In this document: positions 56 through 30,829 of the stretch, in pieces
Numbering within the stretch: the stretch's first letter is position 1
Layout of the letters: every line of letters begins with the position of its first letter
Virus record (IMG/VR): IMGVR_UViG_3300032328_000934
Location: 1-64,000 of that record
Length of the DNA: 64,000 nt
Source: a virus
Lineage: Duplodnaviria; Caudoviricetes
Reading direction: 5' to 3' (one strand)
The notes under the pieces: model-generated
Told to the model about the DNA's origin: nothing
Seen by the model: the letters and a program-made list of their open reading frames with translations, nothing else
Databases searched by the model: none
Translations under genes and position numbers: made by a program

Positions 56-661
56 ATGGGAGTACGCAAAAGTTCAGTTACTAGTAAGCCGATTACCTCG
101 CCTGAGGAGTTTGAGCGATTAAAAGAGGAGCGCCGTGAGCGTAATCGTTTAAATCGCCAACGCTCGAAGGCAATGGAGCGGAGAATTGCAAAGTTTCTTG
201 GGGGAGATCGCACCCCTCAATCAGGAGCTGGGACTGTTAAAGGGGATGTAATAGTACCTTTTCTAAATCGTCCCGGCCGATTCTTGATTGAGTGCAAGCT
301 GACAGAACTTTGGCGATATGGTGAGCCCTGTATTGCAATTAGCAAAGCATGGCTGCGAAAGATACACGAAGAGGCCAAGCAGACTCGTGCATTGTTTGGG
401 GTACTGATCTTCCGCTACCACGGTCGCACAGATGACTACATGCTCATCAAGGCCGTGGATATGGGGGCGCTGACGATTATCGAGGAGAATACTGAAAAGA
501 TACTTAGATTCGATAATCTTAAGACGAAGACTGCAATCTTCCCGCTTAGTAAGGCGGCTGTTTGCAAAGAAGAACCCGGAATCACTTGCGTGTGGATTGA
601 CTTCGTATTATACTACCTTCTGACAGTAACACGCTTTAAGCAGATTTTGGAGGGGTCATGA
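56..661 (+). CDS. PD-(D/E)XK nuclease, Holliday-junction-resolvase-like
   Basis: MERRIAKFLGG...SGAG..KGDV...IECK pattern typical of phage resolvase-type nucleases. Confidence 0.6.
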   Translation: MGVRKSSVTSKPITSPEEFERLKEERRERNRLNRQRSKAMERRIAKFLGGDRTPQSGAGTVKGDVIVPFLNRPGRFLIECKLTELWRYGEPCIAISKAWLRKIHEEAKQTRALFGVLIFRYHGRTDDYMLIKAVDMGALTIIEENTEKILRFDNLKTKTAIFPLSKAAVCKEEPGITCVWIDFVLYYLLTVTRFKQILEGS

Positions 662-981: not shown

Positions 982-2887
982 TGAATGCGATCTTGTTCGA
1001 ACGTTAGAGTTATTCGAGTTTGCTCCGGTGGTCTACCTAGACACCGAAACGACTGGACTTGACCCACGAGCTTCCCAGCTGTTAATGGTACAGCTAGGCA
1101 CAGCCGACGACATTTACGTGTACGACTTCACGCGGATCCCAGTTAAGGCTCTCCGTCATTTCGAGGGCGTACTTACATCGCCACAGACAGTCAAGGTTAT
1201 CCACAACGCTTCCTTTGATTTGAAGGTGTTCTTTCACTTTGGGGGGTACATGGTGGGTCCAGTCCATGACACACGTTTTGCTGAAGTTCTGACGCAAATT
1301 GGTCTACAGAATCGATTTGACTTGGCCAGCGTGGCCAATCGCCGATTGGGTGTTTCACTTGACAAGACTGTGCGGGACACATTTATAGGTCAAGCAATTA
1401 CCGACCTGTCGGACGAGCAGATTTTGTATGCCGCTACTGACGTTGCGGTCTTACCGGCAATCTACAAACAACAGCTGGATGAAATTGCGGACGCTAGTCT
1501 GGAACAGGTCTATCGTTTAGAGATGGACTTGGTACCGGTTGTGGCCAAGATGGAGTACGTGGGAATGCCCTTTAAGAAAGAGCATCTTCAAGAACTCGAA
1601 CCGGTGTTTGATCAATTGATTGCCGACGCAGAGCAGGGAATGCAGGACGCACTCATAGGGGCTGGGGTTGTTGATCAAATCGTGTTTACTAAAGACGGTT
1701 ACAACGCAGTCAACACCTCATCTAATCAACAAATGATAGCAATGTACAATGCGTTGGGCATTGATCTGTCAGACCTCAACGCACGCACTGTTACTGAGTG
1801 GGATTATAAGAATCGTAAGAGCGCCTCCAAGTTTTTACCCGAGTCCGAGTTACTGGAGGATGAGTTGCTTGAGTCTGTTGATGCGTATGGTCGATATGAT
1901 AACTTTTATCTTCGCATGCACGCCTATCTGGGTGGTGCACGTAAGCTTCAATCAACCTACGTGCGGGGGTTGCAGACGATGCAATCACCCATCACCGGTC
2001 GCATTCACGCTACGTTTACTCAAATTGGGGCGGCTACGGGGCGGTTCAGCAGTTCTCGACCGAACCTCCAGAACCTACCGTCCGATCAGAAGCTGAAGAA
2101 TCTTGGCCTTGAGCAAAGTATCCGGCATGCGTTTGCGGTTAATGCGGACACACACCGTATGGTTATCGCTGACTACTCAACCATTGAGTTAGTAATTATT
2201 GCGGATGCAAGCGGTGATGAAGTCTTGGACAGCCATCTTGAGGATTTACACACGTTTGTTGCTCAGCAGATTCTTGGCGTCAAGGACATTAACAACAAGA
2301 ATAAGAAAGAGAATCCCTACAAGATTTGGCGTGACGTTGCCAAGATGGTAAACTACTCGATCGCTTACTCAGTTGGCGGTGAGAGTCTGGCCAAGCAGAT
2401 GACAATTCAGCTCGCACCACTCAACGTTAAGTTTAATGCTAAACAAGCGGATGCAATTATCGAGGCATGGAAAGCCTTGTTTCCACAGGCAACTGCTTGG
2501 CTTAAAAAGAGCGCACGCAGTGCTGTGGTGTACGGCTGGGTTGCAGATTCTTTTGGTCGACGTCGCTATTGGAATCGCGATGAGTTCACTCAGAAGTGGA
2601 AGAAAGAGGCCGCCGAACGAGAGGGAATGAACTTCCCAATTCAAGCACTCTCGGCTTCTATGGTTAAGCTCGCTCTTGTGACTGCATACCGGCAGTTGGA
2701 CGACACACAAGCGTCGATTATCTCCACGGTGCATGACGAAATCATTCTGGAGAGTACGATTGCCTACGCAGAGACCGCCCGCGATATTCTAAAAGAAGCC
2801 ATGGAAAAGGCAGCACAGCAGGTGCTACCACGCTTAGGGTCTAGCGTAATTGTAGACCCAGCAATAAGTACGAGGTATGACAAATGA
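959..2887 (+). CDS. polA: DNA polymerase family A with 3'-5' exonuclease domain
   Basis: Exo motif LDTETTGL and HNASFDL; TGRFSSSRPNLQN; motif A DYSTIEL, motif B RDVAKMVNY, motif C VHDEI. Start moved to ATG 959. Confidence 0.95.
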   Translation: MQTHIVRNECDLVRTLELFEFAPVVYLDTETTGLDPRASQLLMVQLGTADDIYVYDFTRIPVKALRHFEGVLTSPQTVKVIHNASFDLKVFFHFGGYMVGPVHDTRFAEVLTQIGLQNRFDLASVANRRLGVSLDKTVRDTFIGQAITDLSDEQILYAATDVAVLPAIYKQQLDEIADASLEQVYRLEMDLVPVVAKMEYVGMPFKKEHLQELEPVFDQLIADAEQGMQDALIGAGVVDQIVFTKDGYNAVNTSSNQQMIAMYNALGIDLSDLNARTVTEWDYKNRKSASKFLPESELLEDELLESVDAYGRYDNFYLRMHAYLGGARKLQSTYVRGLQTMQSPITGRIHATFTQIGAATGRFSSSRPNLQNLPSDQKLKNLGLEQSIRHAFAVNADTHRMVIADYSTIELVIIADASGDEVLDSHLEDLHTFVAQQILGVKDINNKNKKENPYKIWRDVAKMVNYSIAYSVGGESLAKQMTIQLAPLNVKFNAKQADAIIEAWKALFPQATAWLKKSARSAVVYGWVADSFGRRRYWNRDEFTQKWKKEAAEREGMNFPIQALSASMVKLALVTAYRQLDDTQASIISTVHDEIILESTIAYAETARDILKEAMEKAAQQVLPRLGSSVIVDPAISTRYDK

Positions 2888-3834
2888 CACGTAAGTTTGA
2901 TTCAACCGGTCTTGACTTTGGGGACAATCCGCAAGAATTTGAGTATTATCCCAGCAGCATTATTTCACTTAACCAGCTGTTTGGTGGGGGCGGAGTCCGT
3001 GGTGGGTTGATTGTTCAGCTCCTCGCTGATGCAGGCCATGGTAAGACGACGCTGGCTCTAGACTATGTAGCTCAGGCCCAGAAAAGAGGGGTCAAAGAGT
3101 TGCAGATTACCATTGGTAAGACAACTCGTGGAATTAATGCGTTGTTTATAGATCTCGAACGCACTTATGACGCTGAGTACGCCGCTGCAATTGGGGTAGA
3201 CACTAGTAAATTGCTAGTGTACAAACCCGATTTTGCAGAGCAAGCACTACCGCAGGTGGAAGCTTTATTGTCTCAGGGACTTCAGGTGGTAGTATTTGAC
3301 AGCGTCCCCGCGATGATTACTAAAGACGAGTTTGAAAAAGACATGGATGACCCAGCGCGTATGGCCGGATCTGCTGGTGTACTCAGTCGTTGGTTAATTC
3401 GGCTTGTAGGCTTGGTCGACAATGCCAAGGCATTGATGATTTTTATTAATCAATATCGCGCCAACTTAAGCCCAATGGCACGCAGTAACAAGAAACCCTT
3501 TGGACCGTACTCGCTGCGGTATAATTCGGGAGTTATTATCGAGCTGGTTCGAATTAAAACCGAGAACGACTTGCTGACCATTCAAGCAACCGTTACTAAG
3601 TCAAAGCAGGGGGGCAATGGTACTCGTTGTGAGTACATCATGCGGCAGGCTAAAGGCCTTGCACCTGAATTTGACATACTAGCATTAGCCCTAGAATATG
3701 GTATAATACGTAAAGCCGGGGCGTGGTATGAATTTAAGGGCCAGAAAGTTCAAGGACTGGAGAATTGCGTTCAGCAATTTGATTTGGCAGAACTCCGTCG
3801 GTTAGTTTTAGAGAGGGGTACCAGCAATGAGTGA
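2884..3834 (+). CDS. recA: RecA/UvsX-like recombinase
   Basis: Walker A ADAGHGKTT, FIDLERTYD, Walker B VVVFDSV, FINQYR, C-terminal IIRKAGAWY. Confidence 0.85.
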   Translation: MTRKFDSTGLDFGDNPQEFEYYPSSIISLNQLFGGGGVRGGLIVQLLADAGHGKTTLALDYVAQAQKRGVKELQITIGKTTRGINALFIDLERTYDAEYAAAIGVDTSKLLVYKPDFAEQALPQVEALLSQGLQVVVFDSVPAMITKDEFEKDMDDPARMAGSAGVLSRWLIRLVGLVDNAKALMIFINQYRANLSPMARSNKKPFGPYSLRYNSGVIIELVRIKTENDLLTIQATVTKSKQGGNGTRCEYIMRQAKGLAPEFDILALALEYGIIRKAGAWYEFKGQKVQGLENCVQQFDLAELRRLVLERGTSNE

Positions 3835-4177
3835 GTTAGCAACGTGGGTTACAAATGCACCGGACTACTACGACATGACTCGTGCATACAAGTCGTTAGG
3901 TCGAATTAAGCAAATGGTTATCCTTAAAGAGCGGGAGATTGATCGAGCCGAGCAACAGATTGTTATTGAGGACGAGAAGCCCCGCAGTAATGCTGCACGG
4001 TCCAAACGGTTTCAGGTGACAGGTACTATGCTGGATGAGCTTGCTGATTTAAAGGGAGAGCTGGCTGTTCTTGAGGCTTACTGTAAGCAGCTCGAGTTTG
4101 CCAAGTCAATGTTTGCTTCAGCCGCTTACACAATTAAAATGCGCTTCGATGCACCAGTAGGAGAAGTAAGTGACTAA
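3827..4177 (+). CDS. hypothetical coiled-coil protein
   Basis: 116-aa helical ORF overlapping both neighbours. Confidence 0.65.
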   Translation: MSELATWVTNAPDYYDMTRAYKSLGRIKQMVILKEREIDRAEQQIVIEDEKPRSNAARSKRFQVTGTMLDELADLKGELAVLEAYCKQLEFAKSMFASAAYTIKMRFDAPVGEVSD

Positions 4178-4943
4178 TTTACCTGAGTTCAGCGCGTCGC
4201 GGTTTAACACTTATAAGACGTGCGCTCGAATGTTTCACTACCAGTACAACGAGCAGCAACCTAGAGGTGTGCATGCTTATACTGTGTTAGGTAGTGCGTT
4301 GCACTTAGCGATTGAGCATTTTTACAAGACAAAAGAGCAGCCAATGGTTATCTTCTCGACTAAATTTAACGAGCTTAGTCGAGCGGCTGCTTCCTCGGAG
4401 ACGGGCATTGTCGCGGGTAACTTGATTAGCAAGGCACGTCAGATTGGCCAAGATATTCTTCGAGAGTTTGATTGGGGAAGGTTGAACCCCGTTGAGATCG
4501 AACTTGGATTTCGGCTTGACTTTCCCACAGAAAACCCGCTGGTAATCATGCGTGGCTTTATGGACATGGTTACCGAAGAGGGATACATAATTGACCATAA
4601 GAGTGCGGGCAAGCGTCCTACAAAAGCAGAGCTCGCAGTCAACCCGCAGCTCATTCTTTACGTATGGGCCTATGAACGGCTGTACGGGAAGAAGCCAACG
4701 AAGGTTATCTGGCATCACCTCCGTACGGCAGAGCTAATTGAGGCGGATGTACTCACAGATTACGACGCTAAACTGCAAGCACTTGTAGAAACGCTTCGTA
4801 CTATCCTAGCTGACAAGGAATATCCGAAGCAACCGTACGGATATTTTTGTACAAACCTTTGCTCATTTCACGATCTTTGCTGGTCAAAACAAACAAATGA
4901 AAAGTCGGTTATTAGTTCGGGAGGAATTGAGGGACTATTTTAA
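4170..4943 (+). CDS. PD-(D/E)XK exonuclease, RecB/Cas4-like with 4-Cys staple
   Basis: SASRFNTYKTC, GSALH, GFMD...IIDHKS, QLILY, C-terminal CTNLCSFHDLC. Confidence 0.85.
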   Translation: MTNLPEFSASRFNTYKTCARMFHYQYNEQQPRGVHAYTVLGSALHLAIEHFYKTKEQPMVIFSTKFNELSRAAASSETGIVAGNLISKARQIGQDILREFDWGRLNPVEIELGFRLDFPTENPLVIMRGFMDMVTEEGYIIDHKSAGKRPTKAELAVNPQLILYVWAYERLYGKKPTKVIWHHLRTAELIEADVLTDYDAKLQALVETLRTILADKEYPKQPYGYFCTNLCSFHDLCWSKQTNEKSVISSGGIEGLF

Positions 4944-5286: not shown

Positions 5287-5519
5287 TTAAACAAACTAAA
5301 AAGACGGTCGACTTGTCAAAAGACATTGTACGCATCATTCGATTGGAGTGCGAAGGCAACATCGCAGCAATCACCGCAACTCAGTCTTGGGGCACACAGG
5401 AACCTGTGACTCTGTTTGTAGAGGAACGGGAATCCCTCAGAGAATCTATCGCTGAGGTAGGATCCCAAATGGTAATTTTGGGAATGATTGTCACAGAGCT
5501 TGCTCGGGAGAAGGCCTAA
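5283..5519 (+). CDS. hypothetical protein
   Basis: 78-aa ORF, TTG start overlapping upstream stop. Confidence 0.5.
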   Translation: MIKQTKKTVDLSKDIVRIIRLECEGNIAAITATQSWGTQEPVTLFVEERESLRESIAEVGSQMVILGMIVTELAREKA

Positions 5520-6535
5520 TGAAAGGTGTTTATTTTTCAAATAATTCGTACGGTATTCGTTGGTGGGATAAAGAACAGAAAAAGTATATTCACGGGGGAC
5601 GTTTTGCTACATACGATGAGGCATGCAGTGCCCTCAGTCAGCGTACTCCTACGGTAGACACGCCTCAGATAAGCGGGGTCTCTGCCTCTACCGATACGCG
5701 TGAGTTCGAGGAGCTTGTTGCCATTGGCCAAAAAGCCTACAACATGGTAAAGCAGCAAGCAGTCGCAAAGAAATCACAGCAGATTGATTTAGGTAAGTTA
5801 CCTACAGGCATCGCATTTCTATCAGACCTGCACTTCGGTAACGCTGGTACAGACTACGAGTCAATTTTGACAGACACTAATCTGATCAACGACACTCCGG
5901 GAATGTATGCCGCTTTTCATGGGGACGGTATCGACAACTGGATTGTAGGTAAACTGCAGGCTATTCAACGCGGGCAGGCTTTTTCACATGCAGATGAAAT
6001 CAGTTTGTTTCGCAGTTGGTTACGCAAGATTCATCAAAAGTTGCTTCTCGTCGTGTCAGGAAACCATGACAACTGGACTAAGAAGATTTCCGGGTTGGAT
6101 TTGATACCGGAACTACTTGGCGATACGCACGTACTGTATGATCCGTTTGAAAGTCGTGTCACTGTTCGTTGTGGCACGGGTGCTTGGGATGTATTGATCC
6201 GACATCAGTGGAAGTACAGCAGTATTTTTAATCCAACACACGGGATTGAGGTCGGCCATGATCGTATGACTAACACATTTGACATCGGTGTTGGCGGTCA
6301 TACACATATTGGCACACTTATGCGACCCTTCTTTCGGCACGGTAAGACTAAATTAGCGGTACTTACCGGAGCCTACAAGCGATTCGACTCGTTTTCAAAA
6401 GAGATTGGGTACGCGGAGACGGTTAGCTCCGGCTGCGGTGCTATCATATTCTTCCCTGACGGGAGGCTGTGGTACTCGCCAGATCTAAAAGCCGCGTGTG
6501 ACTATCTTACCTACCTACGCAAGGAGCAATCATGA
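5519..6535 (+). CDS. calcineurin-like metallophosphoesterase with N-terminal AP2-like segment
   Basis: DLHFG, GDGID, GNHD, GHTH motifs; N-terminus KGVYF..YGIRWWD..KYIHGGRFATYDEA. Confidence 0.85.
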   Translation: MKGVYFSNNSYGIRWWDKEQKKYIHGGRFATYDEACSALSQRTPTVDTPQISGVSASTDTREFEELVAIGQKAYNMVKQQAVAKKSQQIDLGKLPTGIAFLSDLHFGNAGTDYESILTDTNLINDTPGMYAAFHGDGIDNWIVGKLQAIQRGQAFSHADEISLFRSWLRKIHQKLLLVVSGNHDNWTKKISGLDLIPELLGDTHVLYDPFESRVTVRCGTGAWDVLIRHQWKYSSIFNPTHGIEVGHDRMTNTFDIGVGGHTHIGTLMRPFFRHGKTKLAVLTGAYKRFDSFSKEIGYAETVSSGCGAIIFFPDGRLWYSPDLKAACDYLTYLRKEQS

Positions 6536-8565: not shown

Positions 8566-8901
8566 ATGGAAGAATCAATGCAACAGATGATTGTAAACGA
8601 AGTAGGTATTGTGGCTCCTCAGGCAAACGAAGCGGTTCCCTACGATGCCTCGGCAGATCCTCTACACCCGTATGGGAAGGACTGCAGCATCTGCTCCACG
8701 GAGTTTGATGACAATGAGTGGGGTATTATGGGTTGGCTTGGAATTGTCCCTGTTAGTTTCTGTGTTAACTGTATGACGGGTATCTACAACATGGTATTTC
8801 AAATGACCAGTGTTGAGGAACTTCAGTCGTTGATTGAAGAAAAGGAGGCGGATGACACCACTGTCGAGTCTCCCGCCAAGCCCCCCCGAGCTGACCGCTA
8901 A
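8566..8901 (+). CDS. hypothetical protein with CxxC...CxxC
   Basis: CSIC and CVNC pairs. Confidence 0.6.
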   Translation: MEESMQQMIVNEVGIVAPQANEAVPYDASADPLHPYGKDCSICSTEFDDNEWGIMGWLGIVPVSFCVNCMTGIYNMVFQMTSVEELQSLIEEKEADDTTVESPAKPPRADR

Positions 8902-14222: not shown

Positions 14223-14464
14223 TCCACATTTTGTCCACACGTTATCCACATTGTTACCCACTCTACATAAAAACTAGGGTGGGTTTCTATATGCACAACG
14301 TTGGCCTGTTCGTTACTTTGTTCACATATATGAACATTCGAATGTTCTAGCGTATGATATAATTGCCACTTTCTTTTTCATTGCGCTTTTTTCTAGCTGA
14401 AACAGCTATAAATGGGCTAATATTGTGAAAAAATGCACAAAAAGTTGACATAAAGTTATCCACA
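14220..14464 (+). promoter_or_regulatory. DnaA-box cluster
   Basis: TAATCCACA 14220, TTGTCCACA 14231, perfect TTATCCACA 14242 and 14456, TTGTTCACA 14318. Confidence 0.65.
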
Positions 14465-14785
14465 ATGCCAGTGACACTGCGATTTGGCCACCAAAAGTAT
14501 ACAAAACTGGCCAATGTGTATCGTGTAACGAGAAAAATTATAATAAAAGATGCGTGTAAGTGATTAGTGAGATTATGTCGACAGTGTTTTAGCGCATTGT
14601 GATGCGGAAATCGTCGATCGGCCGGGCGTCAAAGCAACATTAGAACCGTAATGTTGTTTTTAATATTTTTTACAGCTTTTTTCCCCCGAGCCCCCTTAGA
14701 GCTCGCCTCCCCCGAGCCCCCTCCTGAGTCGTTCGGTTACTTTCCCGAGGCTCCATCGAACGCAGTGAGATGAGCCGAGGTGTGT

Positions 14786-14978
14786 GGGGCTCTGGGCAGG
14801 GGCTCTGGGCGGGGACTTAGTACAGGGCCATCAAACAACCGCAGTTGTTTGGTGCCCTGTTGACAATACCATTCATCAATTCATGCGTGAATTGATGAAT
14901 GACCCGAGCGTGGGGGAGCTAATCGCATGCATAAAAAAAGGGAGACCAGACCCACGCGCACGTGGTGTCTGATCTCCC
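14786..14978. repeat. intergenic module E (G-tracts, hairpins H1 and H2, - strand terminator)
   Basis: G-tracts 14786-14814, H1 14823-14859, H2 14870-14901, terminator 14933-14978; homologous to modules at 25-27 kb. Confidence 0.9.
14933..14978 (-). terminator. intrinsic terminator of the early block
   Basis: GGGAGA..CAGAC..CACG/CGTG..GTCTG..TCTCCC stem followed by T7 on the - strand, just after stop at 14992. Confidence 0.8.
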
Positions 14979-14991
14979 CTCGGTTCCGAGA

Positions 14992-20909: not shown

Positions 20910-21470
20910 CTAATTAACCGTTACTACACCGTTACTAAAACTTACGTATTGCAAGTCTTCTCCTGCGTAGTAAAACACTCTGTTAAGCCAGCTCTCCAAT
21001 TCGGCTGGGTACTCCAGACACCACGTTGTACCGCTTGGAATCCCAAGTGTTTGTAGATACCCACAGAGCAGTTTCCATCGAATGCTGTCTGGGTTTAAGA
21101 GTTCTGGAACTTGCTGTCGCTGTCGACCAAGTTGCTCGAACTCTACGAGTTGAGTCAACAGGTGGGACAGGTGGTAACTTTGGCCAAGGAACACTCGAAA
21201 TGGGGTGTGCACATCTCCTACCGCGTCGGTGTACGACACGGCAAATGCATCGATCCACGCGCCAGAGACTGCGTTCTCGAAGAAATATTCCCAGTATGGG
21301 CAGTTCGCGTACACCACGGCATTGTCGTCGTTCACGATGACAACGTCTAGGCCTTCGGCAGTGAATTGCCGTGCATCCCGCATGGCTTCAAAGCGGTCGT
21401 ACCGAGTAAGTTCCTTGTTTAGGCTACGGTTCTCCATTGATTTGATACCCATAATTTTGAACTCTGACAT
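20910..21470 (-). CDS. hypothetical protein
   Basis: 186 aa, GGAGG RBS. Confidence 0.65.
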   Translation of the reverse strand: MSEFKIMGIKSMENRSLNKELTRYDRFEAMRDARQFTAEGLDVVIVNDDNAVVYANCPYWEYFFENAVSGAWIDAFAVSYTDAVGDVHTPFRVFLGQSYHLSHLLTQLVEFEQLGRQRQQVPELLNPDSIRWKLLCGYLQTLGIPSGTTWCLEYPAELESWLNRVFYYAGEDLQYVSFSNGVVTVN

Positions 21471-24007: not shown

Positions 24008-24199
24008 TTATGCTTGCCGAATTTCGGCCAACACGACTACGTTAGCCTTCTCGAACTTTTCCTTGACCTCCTGCCGACGGGGGTGTGGGGGTAACACCAC
24101 ATACCATACCCCGTTGCCCTTACGGGCCTGCACCTTTGCTCCGGTGCCAAGGTACACCGACGTTGCGAATAACGATGCTTTGACAATTTCCTCTGTCAT
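24008..24199 (-). CDS. hypothetical protein
   Basis: 63 aa, AGGAGG RBS. Confidence 0.6.
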   Translation of the reverse strand: MTEEIVKASLFATSVYLGTGAKVQARKGNGVWYVVLPPHPRRQEVKEKFEKANVVVLAEIRQA

Positions 24200-24276
24200 T
24201 ACAACCTCCTAAATAAAAGAAAAGAAAACCATAATACCCATCTATTTATATACCGCGGATGGGTACGCGGGTGAAC

Positions 24277-24582
24277 CTATTTGACCAACTTATCGAAGTT
24301 GGCCAAGGCTATTTGCGAAGCTGACCGAGCCACCGCACGGCGGGCTGTGGCCTTGCCATCGGCGAACCCCGATTGATAGCCGTCATGCAGACCACGCAAA
24401 CGAGTAGCGTTTACTATCTCGTCTACTTTCGAGGCCAATGGACGGGCGGTCAACTCCCGCCGGAGCTCAATTCGCTCCTTGAGGAGCTTGTCGACGACCT
24501 CGACTGCGTTGCGGTTTGAGAACCACCACGCGCCAAGGGTGAGGACGTTAGCGAGGATGAGAGCGATTAGTACGTACTCCAT
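24277..24582 (-). CDS. hypothetical protein with N-terminal TM helix
   Basis: MEYVLIALILANVLTLGAWWF; ATG 24582 after GGAG. Confidence 0.65.
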   Translation of the reverse strand: MEYVLIALILANVLTLGAWWFSNRNAVEVVDKLLKERIELRRELTARPLASKVDEIVNATRLRGLHDGYQSGFADGKATARRAVARSASQIALANFDKLVK

Positions 24583-24614
24583 GATGTTCTCCAATATACT
24601 AAACGAATAATACC

Positions 24615-24645
24615 AAAATCCCCCACACAAATACATGTGTGAGGG
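24615..24645 (-). promoter_or_regulatory. CACATGT promoter/operator box (variant copy)
   Basis: CCCTCACACATGTATTTGTGTGGGGG followed by TATTAT. Confidence 0.55.
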
Positions 24646-24658
24646 ATGGACTAATGAC

Positions 24659-25057
24659 CTACAGACAATAATCGAAATGTTTGACTATCGTTTGTAGTCC
24701 TGCGGGAGACGCAGGTACGACGAAGCTGGGTGCCCCGTCCCAACGTCCTAGTGGGAAGTCCCACACCCAGCACTGACCGTTGGTTAACTCAAAGCCGACT
24801 GCCCGACCCGAGTATCCGGCGTGTTTCTCGATGAACTTAATTAGTCCATCGTTGTCGCCGAGTAACTCTTCGAGCGTAAAACCCTCGGTGGCCACCCGAT
24901 TTGCGGTGCAGTCGTTGCACTCGCACTCTGGGTCGAACTCACAGCGTTTGGGTGTAGCGGACTGCTTTGCCGTGTGTTCGAGGAAGGTTGCCCAGCCGAC
25001 CTTGCACTCCTCACACAGGCATTGGGCCATACCAACTTCTTCGTAAGTGCATTCCAT
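24659..25057 (-). CDS. hypothetical Cys-rich protein
   Basis: CxCxxC twice; ATG 25057 after AAGGAG. Confidence 0.65.
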   Translation of the reverse strand: MECTYEEVGMAQCLCEECKVGWATFLEHTAKQSATPKRCEFDPECECNDCTANRVATEGFTLEELLGDNDGLIKFIEKHAGYSGRAVGFELTNGQCWVWDFPLGRWDGAPSFVVPASPAGLQTIVKHFDYCL

Positions 25058-25087
25058 GTTAGTCTCCTTAATTAAACGAATAATACC

Positions 25088-25599
25088 ATAATACCCCAAA
25101 CAAACACATGTGGGGAAACTTGATTTCTCCGAACCTCACGGTATTCGAAATCTCCGAGCCTCTGGGATGAACCGTTAGCCAAGCCTGACATTATTCGAAA
25201 CCTCCGAGCCTCCGGGATGAATCGTTCTACACATGGTGAGCAGACATTAATCGTGCAAGGGAGGGGGCTTAATGCAGGGCCATCAACCAACCGCAGTTGG
25301 TTGGTGCCCTGCTGACAACACCATTCAGTAATTCGCGCACGAATTACTGAATGACCCGAGCGTGGAACACCACGGCGAAGCCGGGGTTGTGCGATGTCTG
25401 TTCGCCGCTAGGCGATCAGACAGAGCAGGGACCAGGGCAGGGGCTTTGGGCAGGGACCAGGGCAGGGGCTTTGGGCAGGGGCTTTGGGCAGGGACCAGGG
25501 TTGGCGATGGCCGTGCGCTCGCAAGCGCGCAGCCATCGCGGGGAAGCTAATCGCAAGCATAAAAAAAGGAGACACACAACCCGAGGGTTGTGTGTCTCC
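25088..25599. repeat. intergenic module D (box, 35-bp direct repeat, H1, H2, H4, 12 G-tracts, H5, terminator)
   Basis: Box 25088-25118, H1 25275-25311, H2 25322-25353, H4 25396-25421, G-tracts 25428-25500, H5 25504-25539, terminator 25561-25599. Confidence 0.92.
25561..25599 (-). terminator. intrinsic terminator, module D
   Basis: 14-bp stem GGAGACACACAACC/GGTTGTGTGTCTCC plus T7 on the - strand. Confidence 0.9.
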
Positions 25600-25606
25600 G
25601 GTCGCA

Positions 25607-25828
25607 CTACAGGTAGTGCGCGAAGTGGCGAGCGAGGCTCTCCACCGATTCGGCGGTGTTTGGCCCGGACCAGACCGGCGAGTCGTCGACGCCCGGGACC
25701 GCGTCCCAGACGACGACGGTCCCGCCCCACGCGGTGTCCCAAGTCACCTCACGCCCCACACGGGACGCGTTGAGAGCGATGACGACCAAGAGGACGGTGA
25801 TTGAGTGGCGAGTTGCTGAGTTGTTCAC
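25607..25828 (-). CDS. hypothetical cassette gene
   Basis: GTG start after GGAG; flanked by modules C and D. Confidence 0.55.
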   Translation of the reverse strand: MNNSATRHSITVLLVVIALNASRVGREVTWDTAWGGTVVVWDAVPGVDDSPVWSGPNTAESVESLARHFAHYL

Positions 25829-25858
25829 TGTAGTCTCCAAACACTAATGCAGAATTGC

Positions 25859-25996
25859 ATAATACCCCAAACAAATACATGTGGGGAAATGCAAGTAACG
25901 AGTGAGTTAACATTAATCGGATAACCCAGGGTGCGTGGAGGAGCTAATCACAAGGATAAAAAAAGGAGATACACAACCCTCGGGTTGTGTATCTCC
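25859..25996. repeat. intergenic module C (box plus terminator, minimal form)
   Basis: Box 25859-25889, terminator 25958-25996; joined at CCAGGG. Confidence 0.92.
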
Positions 25997-26002
25997 GTGT
26001 GG

Positions 26003-26380
26003 TTAACGACCCTGAAGCCAAGGGTCGTTGGCTTCAGACTCGGGGTCGAAGTCCCCGTTGGATTCGGCCTCGGGGTCGAACCGCTCGATGCCGGTCGGGC
26101 CGTCCCCGTTCCATCCCGGGACCCCACCCTCCGGGTCGTGTTGCCAGTACTCCACTGGCACCGCCGGTTTCTCTTCCCATGGCGCGCGGGGGAAGGGTGT
26201 CGGCGGGTACGGCCGTGGGGCTGGCTCGTCATCCTCGTCGTCGAGGATGGACCGGTCCGGTGCGGGTGGGGTGTGGATGGTGAGGCGCGCCTCACCGTAG
26301 ACCATTTCGACGACCACGCGTGTGGCGCCGAGTACGGTGACCGTGGAGTCGGACGGGACGGTAATTGTGAATTTAGGCAT
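26003..26380 (-). CDS. hypothetical acidic, Pro-rich cassette gene
   Basis: 125 aa, AAGGA RBS; flanked by modules B and C. Confidence 0.6.
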   Translation of the reverse strand: MPKFTITVPSDSTVTVLGATRVVVEMVYGEARLTIHTPPAPDRSILDDEDDEPAPRPYPPTPFPRAPWEEKPAVPVEYWQHDPEGGVPGWNGDGPTGIERFDPEAESNGDFDPESEANDPWLQGR

Positions 26381-26417
26381 CGGTGTTTCCTTTCTGGGAA
26401 ACTATGCAAGAATTTGC

Positions 26418-26695
26418 AAAATACTCCAAACATATACATGTGGGGAATAGTGTATACGGAGTGAGTTAACATTAATCGTGCAAGGGGAGGGGCTTAATGC
26501 AGGGCCATCAACTAACCGCAGTTAGTTGGTGCCCTGCTGACAACACCATTCACTAATTCGCGCACGAATTAGTGAATGACCCGAGCGTGGATGTATGGAC
26601 CAGGGCAGGGGCTTTGGGCAGGGACCAGGGTGCGTGGAGGAGCTAATTGCAAGCATAAAAAAAGGAGATACACAACCCTCGGGTTGTGTATCTCC
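26418..26695. repeat. intergenic module B (box, H1, H2, G-tracts, terminator)
   Basis: Box 26418-26448, H1 26500-26536, H2 26547-26578, G-tracts 26603-26630, terminator 26657-26695. Confidence 0.92.
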
Positions 26696-26701
26696 GGTCG
26701 G

Positions 26702-27028
26702 TTAATTGGCCAACATGACTTCGTAGTCAGCGGCCGTATATACCTGCAAGGTGAACTCTGCCTCGAACCGACGGCGTCCCTTGCCAATCCACCGAGTCCC
26801 TAAGCTCATCCACGTCCAGCCCCACAGCCGGTATTGGGAAGACTCCACGGTGTGGTACCACCCAGCCACAACACGGTCCGAGATGGCTTTCGCGGACTGC
26901 GGACATGCTAAGAGCATGGCCGAAACGGGGTCGGTGGCGACGCGACGCCAGACGACCTCGCGTAGGACCTGATTCGGATGGACACGGCTGAGAGATGCTC
27001 GCACTGAGCCGACGATGACGTATTCCAC
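26702..27028 (-). CDS. hypothetical cassette gene
   Basis: 108 aa, GTG start after AGGAGG; flanked by modules A and B. Confidence 0.6.
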   Translation of the reverse strand: MEYVIVGSVRASLSRVHPNQVLREVVWRRVATDPVSAMLLACPQSAKAISDRVVAGWYHTVESSQYRLWGWTWMSLGTRWIGKGRRRFEAEFTLQVYTAADYEVMLAN

Positions 27029-27057
27029 AGGAACCTCCTAACTAAAGAAAAGAATTC

Positions 27058-27301
27058 AAAATCTCTCAAACACCTACATGTGGGGAAATGCAAGTAACGA
27101 GTGAGCAGACATTAATCGGATAACCCAGGGTTGGGGGCTTCATCGAGGCCTTGGCCGAGATGCGCGAGTGACCTAGGGCAGGGGCTTTGGGCAGGGACCA
27201 GGGTTGGCGATGTCTGTTCGCCGCTAGGCGATCAGACAGAGCGGGGAGCTAATTGTAAGCATAAAAAAAGGAGATACACAACCCTCGGGTTGTGTATCTC
27301 C
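27058..27301. repeat. intergenic module A (box, G-tracts, H4, terminator)
   Basis: Box 27058-27088, G-tracts 27176-27203, H4 27212-27237, terminator 27263-27301. Confidence 0.92.
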
Positions 27302-27308
27302 GTGTGTG

Positions 27309-27752
27309 CTACCAACGGCAGGCATTTTCCTGCTTCGTTGCGTAATTGGCGTCTGACTCGGCTGAGTCGATGGCGGCTTGCATGTGCCAAGCCGTCCATG
27401 CCTTAGTGCCGAAATTCATCGCTTCAAGAGCGTGTTGCTCTGCGCGATGGGCACGGTAGGCGTCACTCCAACCGTTACGGGTTCCGCGACGGTGAGCTGC
27501 GGCCAAGGCTGATTTGGCTTTGTTGCTCAAGCGGATTGCCCAGACGAATTCGACGAGCATTTCACAGGCGGTGAGGACCAAACCCACGACTGCGCCGATG
27601 GCAAGGCCGTACTCGGAGGCGGCGTACGAGTAGAGATACCACACCGCACCGCCGAACAAGGTCGCGCACACCAGTGCAAGGACGAATGACCGAAACACCA
27701 ACGCGCGAACGATTACGAACAACATGTTGCCGAGATTGAGAATGAGTGACAT
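27309..27752 (-). CDS. membrane protein (2 TM) cassette gene
   Basis: ATG 27752 after AAGGA; two hydrophobic helices. Confidence 0.65.
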   Translation of the reverse strand: MSLILNLGNMLFVIVRALVFRSFVLALVCATLFGGAVWYLYSYAASEYGLAIGAVVGLVLTACEMLVEFVWAIRLSNKAKSALAAAHRRGTRNGWSDAYRAHRAEQHALEAMNFGTKAWTAWHMQAAIDSAESDANYATKQENACRW

Positions 27753-27790
27753 GGTTGTTTCCTTTCTAAGAAAACTATTGCAAAAATTGC

Positions 27791-27821
27791 ATAATACCTC
27801 AAACATATACATGTGGGGAAA
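27791..27821 (-). promoter_or_regulatory. CACATGT promoter/operator box (outermost copy)
   Basis: TTTCCCCACATGTATATGTTTGAGGTATTAT. Confidence 0.6.
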
Positions 27822-28030
27822 GCGCAAATGACGGATAAGGTAGCATTGATCGTGTGAGATACAGCATGACGAGTGAGAAGACACTGATCGTAACTGACGC
27901 GCACATGAAGGATAGCTCGCGTACATGGGGGGTAGACACAAAGGCCACCACTCAGACTTCGCCCCACTCCCCTGTCATACTCAAATTTTTAAAAAACACT
28001 ACGACCTGTTTTGCGTTCCTGCCGCTGAAC

Positions 28031-28080: not shown

Positions 28081-28130
28081 TAGCGTACTGCCATTAGCGT
28101 ACTGCTATTAGCGTACTGCTATTAGCGTAC
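28081..28130. repeat. 14-bp tandem repeat, 3 units plus a partial
   Basis: TAGCGTACTGC(C/T)AT units at 28081, 28095, 28109 and 28123. Confidence 0.85.
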
Positions 28131-28307
28131 GGCCAACGTGTCGGCAAACTTCATTGCTGCGAGATCTCCGTCTTCGATTGAATCAAAAAACTCAACCCAA
28201 TGTGAATCCCCGTCGCGACTTTCCACAGAGAACACGTATTTATCGTTGCGTGTGCTCCATTGGTAGACGATGTATACTTTGCCGTACTTGCGTCGTTTCG
28301 GTTTCAT
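28122..28307 (-). CDS. hypothetical protein
   Basis: 61 aa, AGGA RBS. Confidence 0.55.
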   Translation of the reverse strand: MKPKRRKYGKVYIVYQWSTRNDKYVFSVESRDGDSHWVEFFDSIEDGDLAAMKFADTLAVR

Positions 28308-28866: not shown

Positions 28867-30318
28867 CTACTGCGTTAGTGCAGTTAGTGCAGCGGATGGA
28901 TCGTAGCGATCATCCATAATTGTGGACAACATGACAGACTCTGCGGTGATGCTGTCAAGATTGCCTGACAGCACACTCTTCAGGATTGCCGGGGAAAAGC
29001 CACTGACCATCGCAGTATTGCGGTCGTGTTGCGTGACGCTCTTATCAAGGTCACGTACCTCGGCTTGGTTGAGGTTCCAGAATATGACTGTTGGGGCAGT
29101 GTATCCTTCGGCCTCATACTTGCGACGAATCATTTCGATTGCGCGATCGTCGTGTTTCACACAGGCATTAAACTGCATGTCCGACAGGATCAGCAACACT
29201 TGTGGCATTTCCTCTTGCGATACCTTGCCTTCCTTGGCCACGCGTAAAATCTCTTCAAGTGCGGCGTTCAAATCGGTACTTGTTTCCCAATGTGCACGAG
29301 ACAGTTGATTAAATTTCTCCACAATGTTTCCCTTAAGAACTTGCAGTCGCGGTTTTGACGAAAAAGTCAAAAACGTGTCCTTAAACGGGCCAAGGTTTTT
29401 GTCAGCGACGTACATACCCAACGAAAGAGCGACGCTCAACGCGGTCAGGCCACTCTTTGAAAGCGACACTGAACCCATTGATCCTGAGACGTCAACGAGG
29501 GCGAGTACTCGTGCGTCCCCGACATAGTTGGGAAGCGAATTCCACTGCTGTGCAATGAAGCTCGTCTCAACCTGCCCCAAGCGATGGAAGTTTTGGCTAA
29601 GCAAAGAGACAATCACATCGTGAGGAAAGATTGCCCCAGCGTTTACTTTAACCCCTTCCTTATTGCTCTGCAAATCGCTCACATATTGGGTGTACGCCTG
29701 CTCTGCATTGCGATAAAACGCTTTGCGGTAGCGAGCTGCGGCGACTGACGGGACGTGTGAGAAGTTAATGGAATCCCAATCCTTCGCACACATCTTCGTC
29801 TCAACCACGTTGGTGAGCGAGACCAACATGGTACGGTATTGCTTCCAGCTCATTAACAAGTAGCAACGCAACTTGTCTGCAACAGGCCCTTTGCGGGGCA
29901 TCCACTTCGCGCATAACGGATTCTTCTGCTCGAGTCCTTCGGCGATTAGGCTGAATGCGAACCGTTGGCAGCGTTCAGTCTCGAACACGAGGAGATCATC
30001 CCAGCGACCAAGTTCGGAAACGCGAGTGGCCAAACCCATTGCAAGCAACGGGCGTGAGACCTCGAGTAACCGCAAAATCTTGCGGAAAAACTCACGCTCT
30101 CCAGCTCCCTTACGCACATCACGGCCCCACAACGCAATGCGAAGTGCGTACATTGGGTTTTCAACCAATGCGGCGGTGAACGGGGCAGTAATGTCGGCGT
30201 CACGGTACTCGCTTACACTTGAAAAAAGATCAAGGCAGCGACTACCACTTGAAACAAGGCTCTTCATGCCATTCTCAGTCCGGGTTGTCTGGGCCATCAC
30301 GGCCTGTGCAAAGGTCAT
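28867..30318 (-). CDS. DUF2828-family TROVE-like/vWA (Ro60-related) protein
   Basis: TENG, LDLF, RDVRKGAGERE, GRWDDL, AKWMPR, MIDAS DVSGSM, LILSDMQF, IFWNL. Confidence 0.85.
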   Translation of the reverse strand: MTFAQAVMAQTTRTENGMKSLVSSGSRCLDLFSSVSEYRDADITAPFTAALVENPMYALRIALWGRDVRKGAGEREFFRKILRLLEVSRPLLAMGLATRVSELGRWDDLLVFETERCQRFAFSLIAEGLEQKNPLCAKWMPRKGPVADKLRCYLLMSWKQYRTMLVSLTNVVETKMCAKDWDSINFSHVPSVAAARYRKAFYRNAEQAYTQYVSDLQSNKEGVKVNAGAIFPHDVIVSLLSQNFHRLGQVETSFIAQQWNSLPNYVGDARVLALVDVSGSMGSVSLSKSGLTALSVALSLGMYVADKNLGPFKDTFLTFSSKPRLQVLKGNIVEKFNQLSRAHWETSTDLNAALEEILRVAKEGKVSQEEMPQVLLILSDMQFNACVKHDDRAIEMIRRKYEAEGYTAPTVIFWNLNQAEVRDLDKSVTQHDRNTAMVSGFSPAILKSVLSGNLDSITAESVMLSTIMDDRYDPSAALTALTQ

Positions 30319-30331
30319 TGCGTACTCCTTC

Positions 30332-30529
30332 AGGTTAACGATCTGTCATGCTGTTTGTAACCTAGTAGTCAGGATGAGTTCGAGTTATCACGCTCGAAGT
30401 TTGTTATTGAAGTAATGTTTGGTGTGCAGTACTCATCCAATCGCCCTCTCGGGTGTGTATTAACTTTTCGGGCTACCTAAGAAGTCTGTAGTTTGCAATA
30501 CTATTCTTAAGTTTTGCTGCGGGTAGCCC
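30332..30529 (-). ncRNA. three tandem stem-closed elements upstream of DUF2828 (candidate ncRNA or leader)
   Basis: GGGCTACC/GGTAGCCC (30470-30529), GGATGAGT/ACTCATCC (30372-30438), AGGTTA/TAACCT (30332-30363). Confidence 0.5.
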
Positions 30530-30622
30530 ATTTGTAAGAATCGGATGCGGTTGGTGCTTCAAACCCATATTGTTGCTTTTGTCTTGCGGTACGCATCCAT
30601 CTGTATAATAACCGAATTCGCG

Positions 30623-30829
30623 CTAGCTGTCAAGTGGATTACGCGACGAGTTTGCCTCGATCCGCAAGTACCCGTGACGAGGGCGCATCTCCTGCAAAAC
30701 ACGCTCGATAAACTCGCGTGTTCCGATCACCTCAGTGATAAATTCACTGCGACTGTTAACAATGTTGAATGAACGAATTTCATCCTTCTGCCAATCGATG
30801 GACCGATCTCTAGTCTGTAAGGTCGACAA
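30623..30829 (-). CDS. hypothetical protein
   Basis: 68 aa, operonic. Confidence 0.5.
   Translation of the reverse strand: MSTLQTRDRSIDWQKDEIRSFNIVNSRSEFITEVIGTREFIERVLQEMRPRHGYLRIEANSSRNPLDS

Follow-up and report, generated by a model that had tools for sequence, protein, structure and literature searches.

In this work, we analysed a 64,000-nt window that comprises the first 64 kb of IMG/VR record IMGVR_UViG_3300032328_000934, a 78,974-bp sequence rated complete that belongs to an uncultured tailed phage of about 79 kb. At 27.9-24.2 kb, on the minus strand, this genome carries an array of six small ORFan genes (c1 to c6), each provided with its own regulatory signals and separated from the next by spacers made of repeated parts. 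We think it probable that this array is a hyperplastic accessory region shuffled by ordinary homologous recombination between its repeated regulatory modules, in a manner similar to that proposed for the promoter-early stem-loops (PeSLs) of T4-type phages. The spacers are mosaics of shared blocks, the content and order of the cassettes vary among related phages, the breakpoints fall at repeats, and profile searches of the complete genome found no site-specific recombinase. A previous sequence-only reading of the window had put the array forward as a candidate for an undescribed cassette capture and shuffling system. A dedicated capture system is not supported, as insertions and deletions end at plain direct repeats and general homologous recombination would be sufficient to explain what was seen.

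In the mechanism that we favour, each small gene would constitute a unit of its own, formed by a promoter-like box, a ribosome-binding site, an open reading frame (ORF) and, in c1 to c4, a strong intrinsic terminator. The spacers would be deletion and duplication derivatives of a single ordered template, and their most likely function would be to insulate adjoining units through fail-safe termination and structured RNA 3′ ends. Given that blocks of 30-250 nt recur across the modules with 80-100% identity and in one orientation, they would offer homology tracts for general homologous recombination. Such recombination could be carried out by the UvsX/RecA-like, Cas4-like, SbcD-like and Holliday-junction resolvase proteins of the phage or by a host system, and the exchange could take place within a single genome or between co-infecting relatives. 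The expected outcomes would be the deletion, insertion and re-ordering of whole cassettes, the replacement of alleles, and the homogenisation of the regulatory parts across the array.

The array sits within a long minus-strand gene block that runs from approximately 41.8 kb to 15.0 kb, and both the host of the phage and the time at which the array is expressed are matters of inference here. Its genes, together with the first conserved gene after them, are the following:

27309-27752, minus strand: c1, an ORFan of 147 aa that is predicted to be a membrane protein and has a GGAAAC site of the Shine-Dalgarno type.
26702-27028, minus strand: c2, 108 aa, ORFan, present in only part of the relatives.
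26003-26380, minus strand: c3, 125 aa, Pro/Asp-rich, ORFan.
25607-25831, minus strand: c4, 74 aa, GTG start, ORFan.
24659-25057, minus strand: c5, 132 aa, eight invariant cysteines, without a canonical terminator.
24277-24582, minus strand: c6, 101 aa, hydrophobic N-terminal segment.
24008-24199, minus strand: g63, first conserved gene after the array.

A ribosome-binding site precedes each of the six cassette genes. None of the six proteins belongs to a Pfam or PHROG family, and searches of the ESM Atlas, Pfam and PHROGs gave no usable match for them. In an alignment of eight homologues, the invariant cysteines of c5 all lie within the first 50 residues, in CxC and CxxC patterns that suggest two metal-binding sites. 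The AlphaFold2 model of this protein is poor (predicted local distance difference test score of 59), with a C-terminal half that forms a small alpha/beta domain, and it had no Foldseek match at E<=0.001. The cassette ORFs contain 55-66% GC (62-84% at third codon positions). The genome as a whole is at 46.5%, and the values of the flanking genes f61, f118 and g157 (a conserved 157-aa gene just downstream of the array) are 47-51%. Such a difference from the genome average fits what is expected of acquired accessory genes.

Upstream of each cassette gene stands one of the six copies of a box that measures approximately 59 nt (repeat family D1). Its most conserved stretch is TTTGGGGTATTATG and its core contains the -10-like GGGTATTATGG. 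When up to one mismatch is allowed, ACATGTGGGGAAA is found at five places, always inside the array, and neither the core nor the promoter motif has an exact copy outside it. The following putative promoters were located, those of c1 to c6 from the D1 repeat and the aligned upstream regions:

27763-27821, minus strand: c1 promoter-like box, CCCCACATGT ... TTTGAGGTATTATG.
27030-27088, minus strand: c2 promoter-like box.
26390-26448, minus strand: c3 promoter-like box.
25832-25889, minus strand: c4 promoter-like box.
25060-25118, minus strand: c5 promoter-like box.
24587-24645, minus strand: c6 promoter-like box, with a 12-pair stem-loop and T-rich tail that score as terminator-like for c5.
24213-24276, minus strand: g63 promoter-like box, with a CCCATC..GATGGG hairpin and TATTATGG.

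At the other end of the units, c1 to c4 finish within a few bases of a near-identical predicted terminator, GGAGAYACACAACC-N4-GGTTGTGTRTCTCC followed by T7, with a 14-bp stem and a 4-nt loop. These four stems rank at the top of the terminator-like sites of the region, and their palindrome is unique to the array in the 78,974-bp genome. Separately, a match to GGGGTATTATGG at 8720, which lies inside a coding sequence, was discarded as fortuitous. Each of the four terminators is directly followed by an A box with the motif ATGCTTGCGATTAGCTCC:

27270-27301, minus strand: predicted terminator after c1; with its A box (ATGCTTACAATTAGCTCC), 27243-27301.
26664-26695, minus strand: predicted terminator after c2; with its A box, 26637-26695.
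25965-25996, minus strand: predicted terminator after c3; with its A box, 25938-25996.
25568-25599, minus strand: predicted terminator after c4; with its A box, 25541-25599, and a compensatory T-A to C-G change in the stem.

The sequence-only reading had described four ORFs, each bounded by a promoter-like box and a near-identical terminator. The boxes are indeed there, but the cassettes number six, and the near-identical terminators belong to c1 to c4 only. At the c5/c6 junction, the stem-loop of the c6 box stands where a terminator for c5 would be expected, which is the classic PeSL layout.

The spacers proved to be, as had been suggested, a mosaic of shared blocks; more precisely, they are ordered subsets of one template in which the parts never change places. 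The order of this template is terminator, A box, hairpins Hc/Hd, 13-nt repeats that are C-rich on the gene strand and G-rich on the plus strand, the 82-nt twin hairpin Ha-Hb, K box, E boxes and promoter. The K box, CGATTAATGT..., contains the core ACATTAATCG of the earlier reading, and this core occurs exactly four times in the window, always in the array. The parts are distributed as follows:

27866-27890, minus strand: upstream array boundary, a K-like box (CGATCAGTGTCTTCTCACTCGTCAT) at which the identity with the related contig L005 (95-98%) stops.
27170-27247, minus strand: spacer A, with hairpin Hd at 27207-27247 and C-rich repeats at 27170-27203 (families D4 and D8).
26597-26630, minus strand: C-rich repeats of spacer B (family D4).
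26500-26581, minus strand: twin hairpin Ha-Hb of spacer B, 82 nt.
25832-26002, minus strand: spacer C, with terminator, A box, K box and promoter only.
25058-25606, minus strand: spacer D, with nearly all the template parts.
25391-25544, minus strand: middle of spacer D, with Hc at 25504-25544, C-rich repeats at 25425-25500 and Hd at 25391-25431 (families D4, D7 and D8).
25275-25356, minus strand: twin hairpin Ha-Hb of spacer D, 82 nt.
25129-25226, minus strand: two E boxes (CATCCCRGAGGCTCGGAGRTTTCGAATA) upstream of the c5 box, of which relatives have 1-3 copies (family D11).
14786-14980, minus strand: fifth, distal module, with a different terminator stem, an A box, a twin hairpin at 14823-14904 and C-rich repeats at 14786-14814.

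All four flank combinations that had been reported around the core were found, namely, GCAG+GATAACC at 27105, GTTA+GATAACC at 25906, GTTA+TGCAAGG at 26465 and GCAG+TGCAAGG at 25240. Module C is chimeric, as had been claimed: the 75 nt on its promoter side are 88% identical to A, the 81 nt on its terminator side are 93% identical to B, and the two stretches overlap at CCAGGGT (families D3 and D2). The distal module noticed at 14.8 kb is also real and was located at 14786-14941, or at 14786-14980 when delimited with all its parts; it closes the minus-strand block directly past the last gene, and its position is conserved in relatives.

The 13 distinct versions of the twin hairpin in the window and relatives are all 82 nt long, 99.5% of their pair cells are standard, and 5 of the 28 pairs show compensatory double changes, while shifting the 3′ partner abolishes the pairing. 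This constant length, together with a compensatory pairing that is lost on sliding, indicates that the structure is under selection. The stems consist almost exclusively of Watson-Crick pairs and have the same stability on either strand, and neither the folding energies of sense and antisense strands nor the G.U counts revealed a clear strand preference, so that the hairpins may act as RNA or as DNA. On the gene strand, the majority of the loops are UGCG or UUCG, with two Ha copies flipped to the complementary CGCA, and terminator loops have been seen both ways (CGAG/CTCG and TGCG/CGCA). As a separate observation, the flipped palindrome loops at 14823-14904 and 25568-25599 and in contigs L093 and L102 indicate that the loop spacer has been repeatedly inverted at the DNA level. 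At the gathering score, Rfam 15 recognised only two tRNAs in the window, and at E<=1 it matched nothing between 24000 and 30800. At neither threshold did a spacer element correspond to a family, and no ribozyme was found.

These properties could lead one to propose that the modules are kept solely for regulation at the RNA level, for instance, because the C-rich tract provides fail-safe (e.g., Rho-dependent) termination or because the transcripts are processed by RNase or protected at their 3′ ends by UNCG-type hairpins, and that the cassette variation is incidental, illegitimate and mediated by microhomology, the modules themselves not being what recombines. In fact, every module stands behind a terminator and has the same orientation, even where the transcription block ends, the twin hairpin keeps its length and pairing as described above, the loops are mostly of the UNCG kind on the gene strand, there is one U.G wobble on that strand, and the C-rich, G-poor tract may resemble a Rho utilisation (rut) site. 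In addition, the ends of one inserted gene (x5, described below) share just 7 nt in contig L088. Nevertheless, the modules include block-wise chimeras (the four-gamete pattern and the junction of A-left with B-right in C), allele swaps stop at the leader and the terminator, and the array-wide dialects discussed below require exchange between module copies; the loop flips, moreover, mean that the UNCG reading is not strictly kept. We therefore consider it unlikely that regulation of the RNA is the whole explanation, even though such a role and shuffling by homologous recombination are compatible.

The evidence for shuffling comes from a comparison of 13 related metagenomic contigs or arrays, many of which end within the array. 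They were found through the DUF2828 gene (L005), a pattern of the A box (L087 and L088) and homologues of the 157-aa gene in a protein database (L090 to L103). Two of the four metagenome hits to the A box (L086 and L089) were AT-rich chance matches and were set aside. No match was obtained when the array was compared with 50,697 phage records by megablast, and the DNA polymerase of the phage, of the PolA type and not T4-like, has less than 30% identity to its best match in cultured phages. Protein patterns of g157 found no match in IMG/VR, and neither did an initial terminator pattern, in this case because the relatives carry another loop. Gene orders were established from curated genes, as naive clustering of ORFs merged families through shared leaders and repeat-encoded ORFs; they are given below with c1* and c3* written as labelled in our curation:

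Window: f118 f61 / c1 c2 c3 c4 c5 c6 / g63 g157.
L101 (spans the full array): f118 f61 / methylase c1* c5 c4 c6 / g63.
L100: methylase c1 c2 c3* c5 c6 x5 / g63.
L098: c2 c3 c4 c5 c6 / g63.
L088: c3* c5 c4 c6 x5 / g63.
L090: c1 c3 c5 c6 x5 / g63.
L093: c3* c5 c6 x5 / g63.
L102: c3* c5 c4 c6 / g63.
L005: f118 f61 / c1* c3* ...

A content and order of the cassettes that were fixed across relatives would have counted against the sequence-only reading, but both vary. The genes c2, c4, x5 and an EcoRI-like methylase may be present or absent; for example, c2 is missing from the c1-c3 interval in L005 and L090, and c4 from L090, L093 and L100. The order of c4 and c5 is swapped between two groups of arrays, with c4 preceding c5 in the window and L098 and following it in L088, L101 and L102, and each order is represented by two or more separate lineages that were sampled in different places or studies. 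While the flanking proteins are 72-100% identical to those of the window, the cassette proteins range from 23 to 100%, with drops to 23-60%, in a pattern that is independent of the flanks. The c1 homologues (in L005, L090, L100 and L101) have 23-88% identity, c2 is 100% identical in L100 and 54% in L098, the c3 alleles are strongly diverged and measure 67-125 aa, and c6, found in all the relatives, keeps 78-90%. All 13 arrays obey a single spacer grammar and differ in which of the parts they use and how often these are repeated; the C-rich repeat unit, for example, has 1-12 copies.

Two cassettes of the relatives are not found in the window. One of them, x5 (L088:2439-2795, with homologues in L090-L095 and L100), is an ORFan of 118 aa that most of the relatives carry between c6 and g63. 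The other is an AT-rich cassette for an EcoRI-like DNA methyltransferase (PF13651; L101:706-1629 and L100:3-269), which L005 lacks as well. In a further contig, 'jCCzsDiq' (ENA ERZ21844627 / JGI), the 271-aa last gene of the block lies approximately 450 bp upstream of c5-c6-x5-g63. Such a join would be expected if the distal 14.8-kb module had recombined with one of the modules of the array, giving a circle or a duplication, or if the contig were misassembled.

Given that most of the contigs of the relatives stop inside the array, that repeats of 30-130 nt with more than 90% identity are present and that one contig has an odd join, one may ask whether the apparent shuffling was created when metagenomes with mixed strain populations were assembled across the repeats. 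We consider this extremely unlikely. L103, a separate 13.6-kb contig, is 100% identical to window positions 28900-23500, which supports the assembly of the window, as the array is matched base for base; each alternative order comes from at least two lineages, different samples and different assemblers; and mis-joining cannot create alleles with 23-60% identity.

The positions of the breakpoints fit homologous recombination at the modules. L005 is 98.4% identical over the 9.3 kb upstream and diverges exactly at the K-like box at 27866, and both L005 and L101 track the window up to this box (27866-27890) and then continue with another type of promoter. In L101, f118 and f61 are 98-100% identical to those of the window and c1 only 26%, and in L100, c2 is fully identical and g157 only 75%. 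The c3 cassettes of the window and L100 agree at 39 of 40 positions of promoter and leader and have kept the terminator, while the proteins encoded in between have 35% identity. Similarly, module D is 97% identical to that of L101, while the neighbouring genes are at about 77%. The lone c1-c3 spacer of L090 consists of the left part of spacer A and the right part of spacer B. In L100, x5 lies between 22-nt direct repeats that correspond to the left half of the g63 box, of which the window has a single copy; this is the same 22-nt repeat that flanks x5 in relatives. The methylase, inserted in the f61 terminator between 10-nt GGGTGTTTTT repeats at the T-runs of two terminator ends, is the newest acquisition among the relatives and carries its own foreign promoter and terminator. 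The ends of the insertions and deletions are repeated boxes, direct repeats of 10-22 nt or, in the case of c2, whole modules.

The arrays also differ in their regulatory sequences as a whole. In type I arrays (the window, L090, L094, L098 and L100), the boxes read CCCCACATGT...TTTGGGGTATTATG, whereas in type II arrays (L005, L088, L093, L101 and L102), they read CGATTRATGCTT...TTTTGGGTATTATGG and precede a leader that is rich in pyrimidines and contains a CCCCGCATTCGGGG hairpin; it is the upstream halves of the boxes that differ between these two dialects. The dialect is uniform across all the cassettes of an array, whatever their gene family, and the c6 box follows that of its array although the c6 protein is 81-89% identical across types. 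One position of the A box (T vs A) splits along the same line. Such array-wide dialects point to exchange between module copies or the replacement of whole arrays. On a separate matter, the TGCTT of type II promoters was considered as a T4 MotA box and rejected, its spacing to the -10 being about 6 nt. In T4 middle promoters, the MotA box lies 11-13 nt from the -10. Comeau et al. 2014 (PMC4122927) speak of an 'appropriate distance'.

A more active role for the structured parts has to be weighed at this point. The terminators, which are perfect palindromes of 32 bp, and likewise the twin hairpins and the 13-nt repeats with their G-rich strand, might drive cassette turnover by extruding cruciforms or G-quadruplexes, stalling replication forks or being cut by the resolvase or an unrecognised nuclease, followed by repair from another module. 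The result would be a recombination hot spot that promotes itself or even a true capture system with an unrecognised enzyme. Several observations agree with this idea: the terminator and A box are approximately 92% identical everywhere, while the cassette proteins go down to 23-60%; several of the hairpin loops are flipped, a DNA-level event typical of palindromes; the near-pure Watson-Crick stems would be equally stable on either strand and as DNA; the number of C-rich repeats varies from 1 to 12; the genome has a resolvase-like gene; and the join in contig 'jCCzsDiq' looks as a circle or duplication junction would. However, no module-specific enzyme has been identified and the genome has no site-specific recombinase family, the indels end at varied ordinary direct repeats and not at a single fixed crossover site, spacer C still flanks swapped cassettes despite having neither hairpins nor G-tracts, and the junction contig may be a misassembly induced by repeats. 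The formation of G-quadruplexes or cruciforms, and any part of the hairpins in recombination, are candidate properties only. We thus regard active structures as a doubtful explanation, and the narrower proposal, in which the long spacers form non-B DNA that is cut (e.g., by the phage's own resolvase) or stalls replication, so that the array provokes its own recombination, as a rather improbable one. If it were true, the array would have a built-in device for cassette exchange that spares the need for a dedicated enzyme, and this would account for the identity of about 92% of the terminator stems across diverged phages.

Ordinary homologous recombination, on the other hand, would have candidate enzymes in the genome. 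Four candidate recombination genes are encoded in its replication module, outside the array:

56-661, plus strand: Holliday-junction resolvase-like gene (phrog_2002, E 1.3e-15).
2884-3834, plus strand: UvsX/RecA-like recombinase gene (phrog_97, E 1.6e-43).
4170-4943, plus strand: Cas4-like PD-(D/E)XK exonuclease gene (phrog_1218, phrog_69 and phrog_1706).
5519-6535, plus strand: SbcD/Mre11-like DNA repair exonuclease gene (phrog_7339, E 2.1e-34).

The RecA-like and Cas4-like genes to which the activity had been tentatively attributed are thus present, and they may be among the enzymes that act on the array. Conversely, profile searches of the whole 78,974-bp genome, with positive controls, found no tyrosine integrase (PF00589), no serine or resolvase-type recombinase (PF00239) and no Y1 transposase (PF01797), in agreement with the previous remark that no integrase is visible. 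This weighs against the idea that an integron- or transposon-like mobile system, with attC-like hairpins or elements similar to REP/RAYT or to miniature inverted-repeat transposable elements (MITEs), moves the cassettes. Hairpin-rich repeats around single genes and cassettes that are unrelated ORFans are what such a system would present, but, apart from the lack of these enzymes, every cassette has its own promoter-like box, the hairpins are perfect, whereas attC has extrahelical bases, neither target duplications nor inverted repeats at the termini are present, and all the modules share orientation and internal order. Furthermore, the pattern of the twin hairpin is absent from 185,579 GTDB species genomes, and in IMG/VR only a close relative matches it. 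This alternative is very improbable and already largely refuted.

The closest known counterpart is the PeSL, described for the T4-type phages RB49/phi1, T4/PST and KVP40/nt-1 (Arbiol et al. 2010, PMC2839356; Comeau et al. 2014, PMC4122927). The model described there is that terminator/promoter motifs in hyperplastic regions act as portable homology, so that ORFans are swapped together with their own signals. The comparison with PeSL shuffling, already made in the sequence-only reading, is apt, and the functional hallmarks that could be tested are present: composite terminator/promoter motifs are repeated between the small ORFans of a hyperplastic region, the gene insertions, deletions and replacements of close relatives end at the motifs, homologous recombination without a site-specific recombinase is the proposed mechanism, and at the c5/c6 junction a stem-loop overlaps a promoter box. 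There are also differences. The phage is not of the T4 type (as judged from its polymerase, less than 30% identical to those of cultured phages, and from the lack of DNA matches), and its motifs have no sequence similarity to any PeSL. PeSL promoters are near the sigma-70 consensus (-35, N17, -10), whereas the array boxes have no -35, and up to 450 nt of ordered structured parts lie here between terminator and promoter, which PeSLs do not have. Excised mini-circles with one chimeric motif are described there for PeSLs, whereas the array is known from assembled contigs alone.

Other systems are comparable in some respects only. In the halovirus HF2, intergenic repeat families also carry promoters within a virus genome, but this is an archaeal virus, its repeats are short (29 and 58 bp) and AT-rich, and its abstract mentions no cassette shuffling at repeats (PMC8707807). 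The array resembles an integron in its row of single unrelated small genes with structured repeats between them and variable content; it differs in the lack of an IntI-type integrase, in the promoter-like box of each cassette and the terminators of c1 to c4, and in having perfect or near-perfect hairpins and other blocks instead of attC, with no single crossover point. For REP/REPIN-RAYT and IS200/IS605 hairpin elements, the hallmark would be a Y1 HUH transposase, and PF01797 had no match. Morons, as Juhala et al. 2000 and Hendrix et al. are said to have described them, are autonomous promoter-gene-terminator units located between genes in lambdoid and other tailed phages. The cassettes are similar to them in being self-contained predicted units of accessory or no known function and of deviating composition (55-66% vs 46.5% GC), and the methylase cassette of L100 and L101 is a textbook moron at a terminator. 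However, morons are usually single, unrelated and equipped with their own signals, whereas here at least six in a row share their promoter, terminator and spacer parts.

Several points count against the shuffling of this array by homologous recombination between its modules as we have presented it. The relatives are all metagenomic contigs, many of them ending in the array, and some of the orders may be assembly errors; recombination is known here from assembled contigs, not from excised circles or junctions. A simple sigma-70 scan reported none of the promoter-like boxes, which share only a -10-like TATTAT with GGG upstream and have no recognisable -35, and both their promoter activity and the polymerase that would use them are things that we infer from sequence. 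The 58-nt terminator plus A box, at approximately 92% identity among 20 copies from eight genomes, shows no excess similarity within genomes (permutation p = 0.24), so that the evidence for concerted evolution is limited to the promoter/leader dialect and a single position of the A box. Finally, the sequence of the terminator stem is conserved beyond structural need, which the model does not account for.

Some features of the surroundings deserve mention. Directly upstream of the array, at 28867-30318 on the minus strand, lies a gene annotated as DUF2828 / phrog_850 'RNA-binding protein' and Ro/TROVE-like, with a near-consensus TTGACA-17-TATTAT promoter at 30633-30605 and a leader of about 300 nt (30319-30633) with an ordinary folding energy (z = -0.8). 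A 14-nt tandem repeat (TAGCGTACTGCYAT, 3.9 copies, two in L101) covers the 3′ end of f61 at 28081-28135. Between 17.6 and 21.5 kb, three more pairs of repeated intergenic leaders, each with a hairpin and a box (for instance, GCGGRGGA..TYCCGCAATTATCGAGGA, CCGGGGNCACGTTACTTCCGGTAATTA and GGAGWAGCTAACCAYTYAAGCTTYACTTA), stand just before the ribosome-binding sites of the genes starting at 21470, 20841, 20136, 19890, 18568 and 18094, as a second layer of repeated regulatory modules. Lastly, where the plus- and minus-strand blocks converge (14280-14780), a hairpin with a T-run (CAACATTA..TAATGTTG) and GGGGGCTCGGGGGA repeats adjoin the distal module.

Although these results reveal no new recombination enzyme or new principle, they provide a comparative record of unusual clarity, in which the gain, loss, re-ordering and allele replacement of cassettes can be followed together with two array-wide dialects. 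They also define conserved non-coding parts that can be tested, such as the 82-nt twin hairpin, the A, K and E boxes and a C-rich 13-nt repeat that varies, and the array can be viewed as a case from nature in which accessory genes are housed in portable promoter-terminator frames. If our interpretation is right, as we think probable, the shuffling mediated by promoters and terminators that was published for T4-type phages would extend to an unrelated lineage of uncultured phages.

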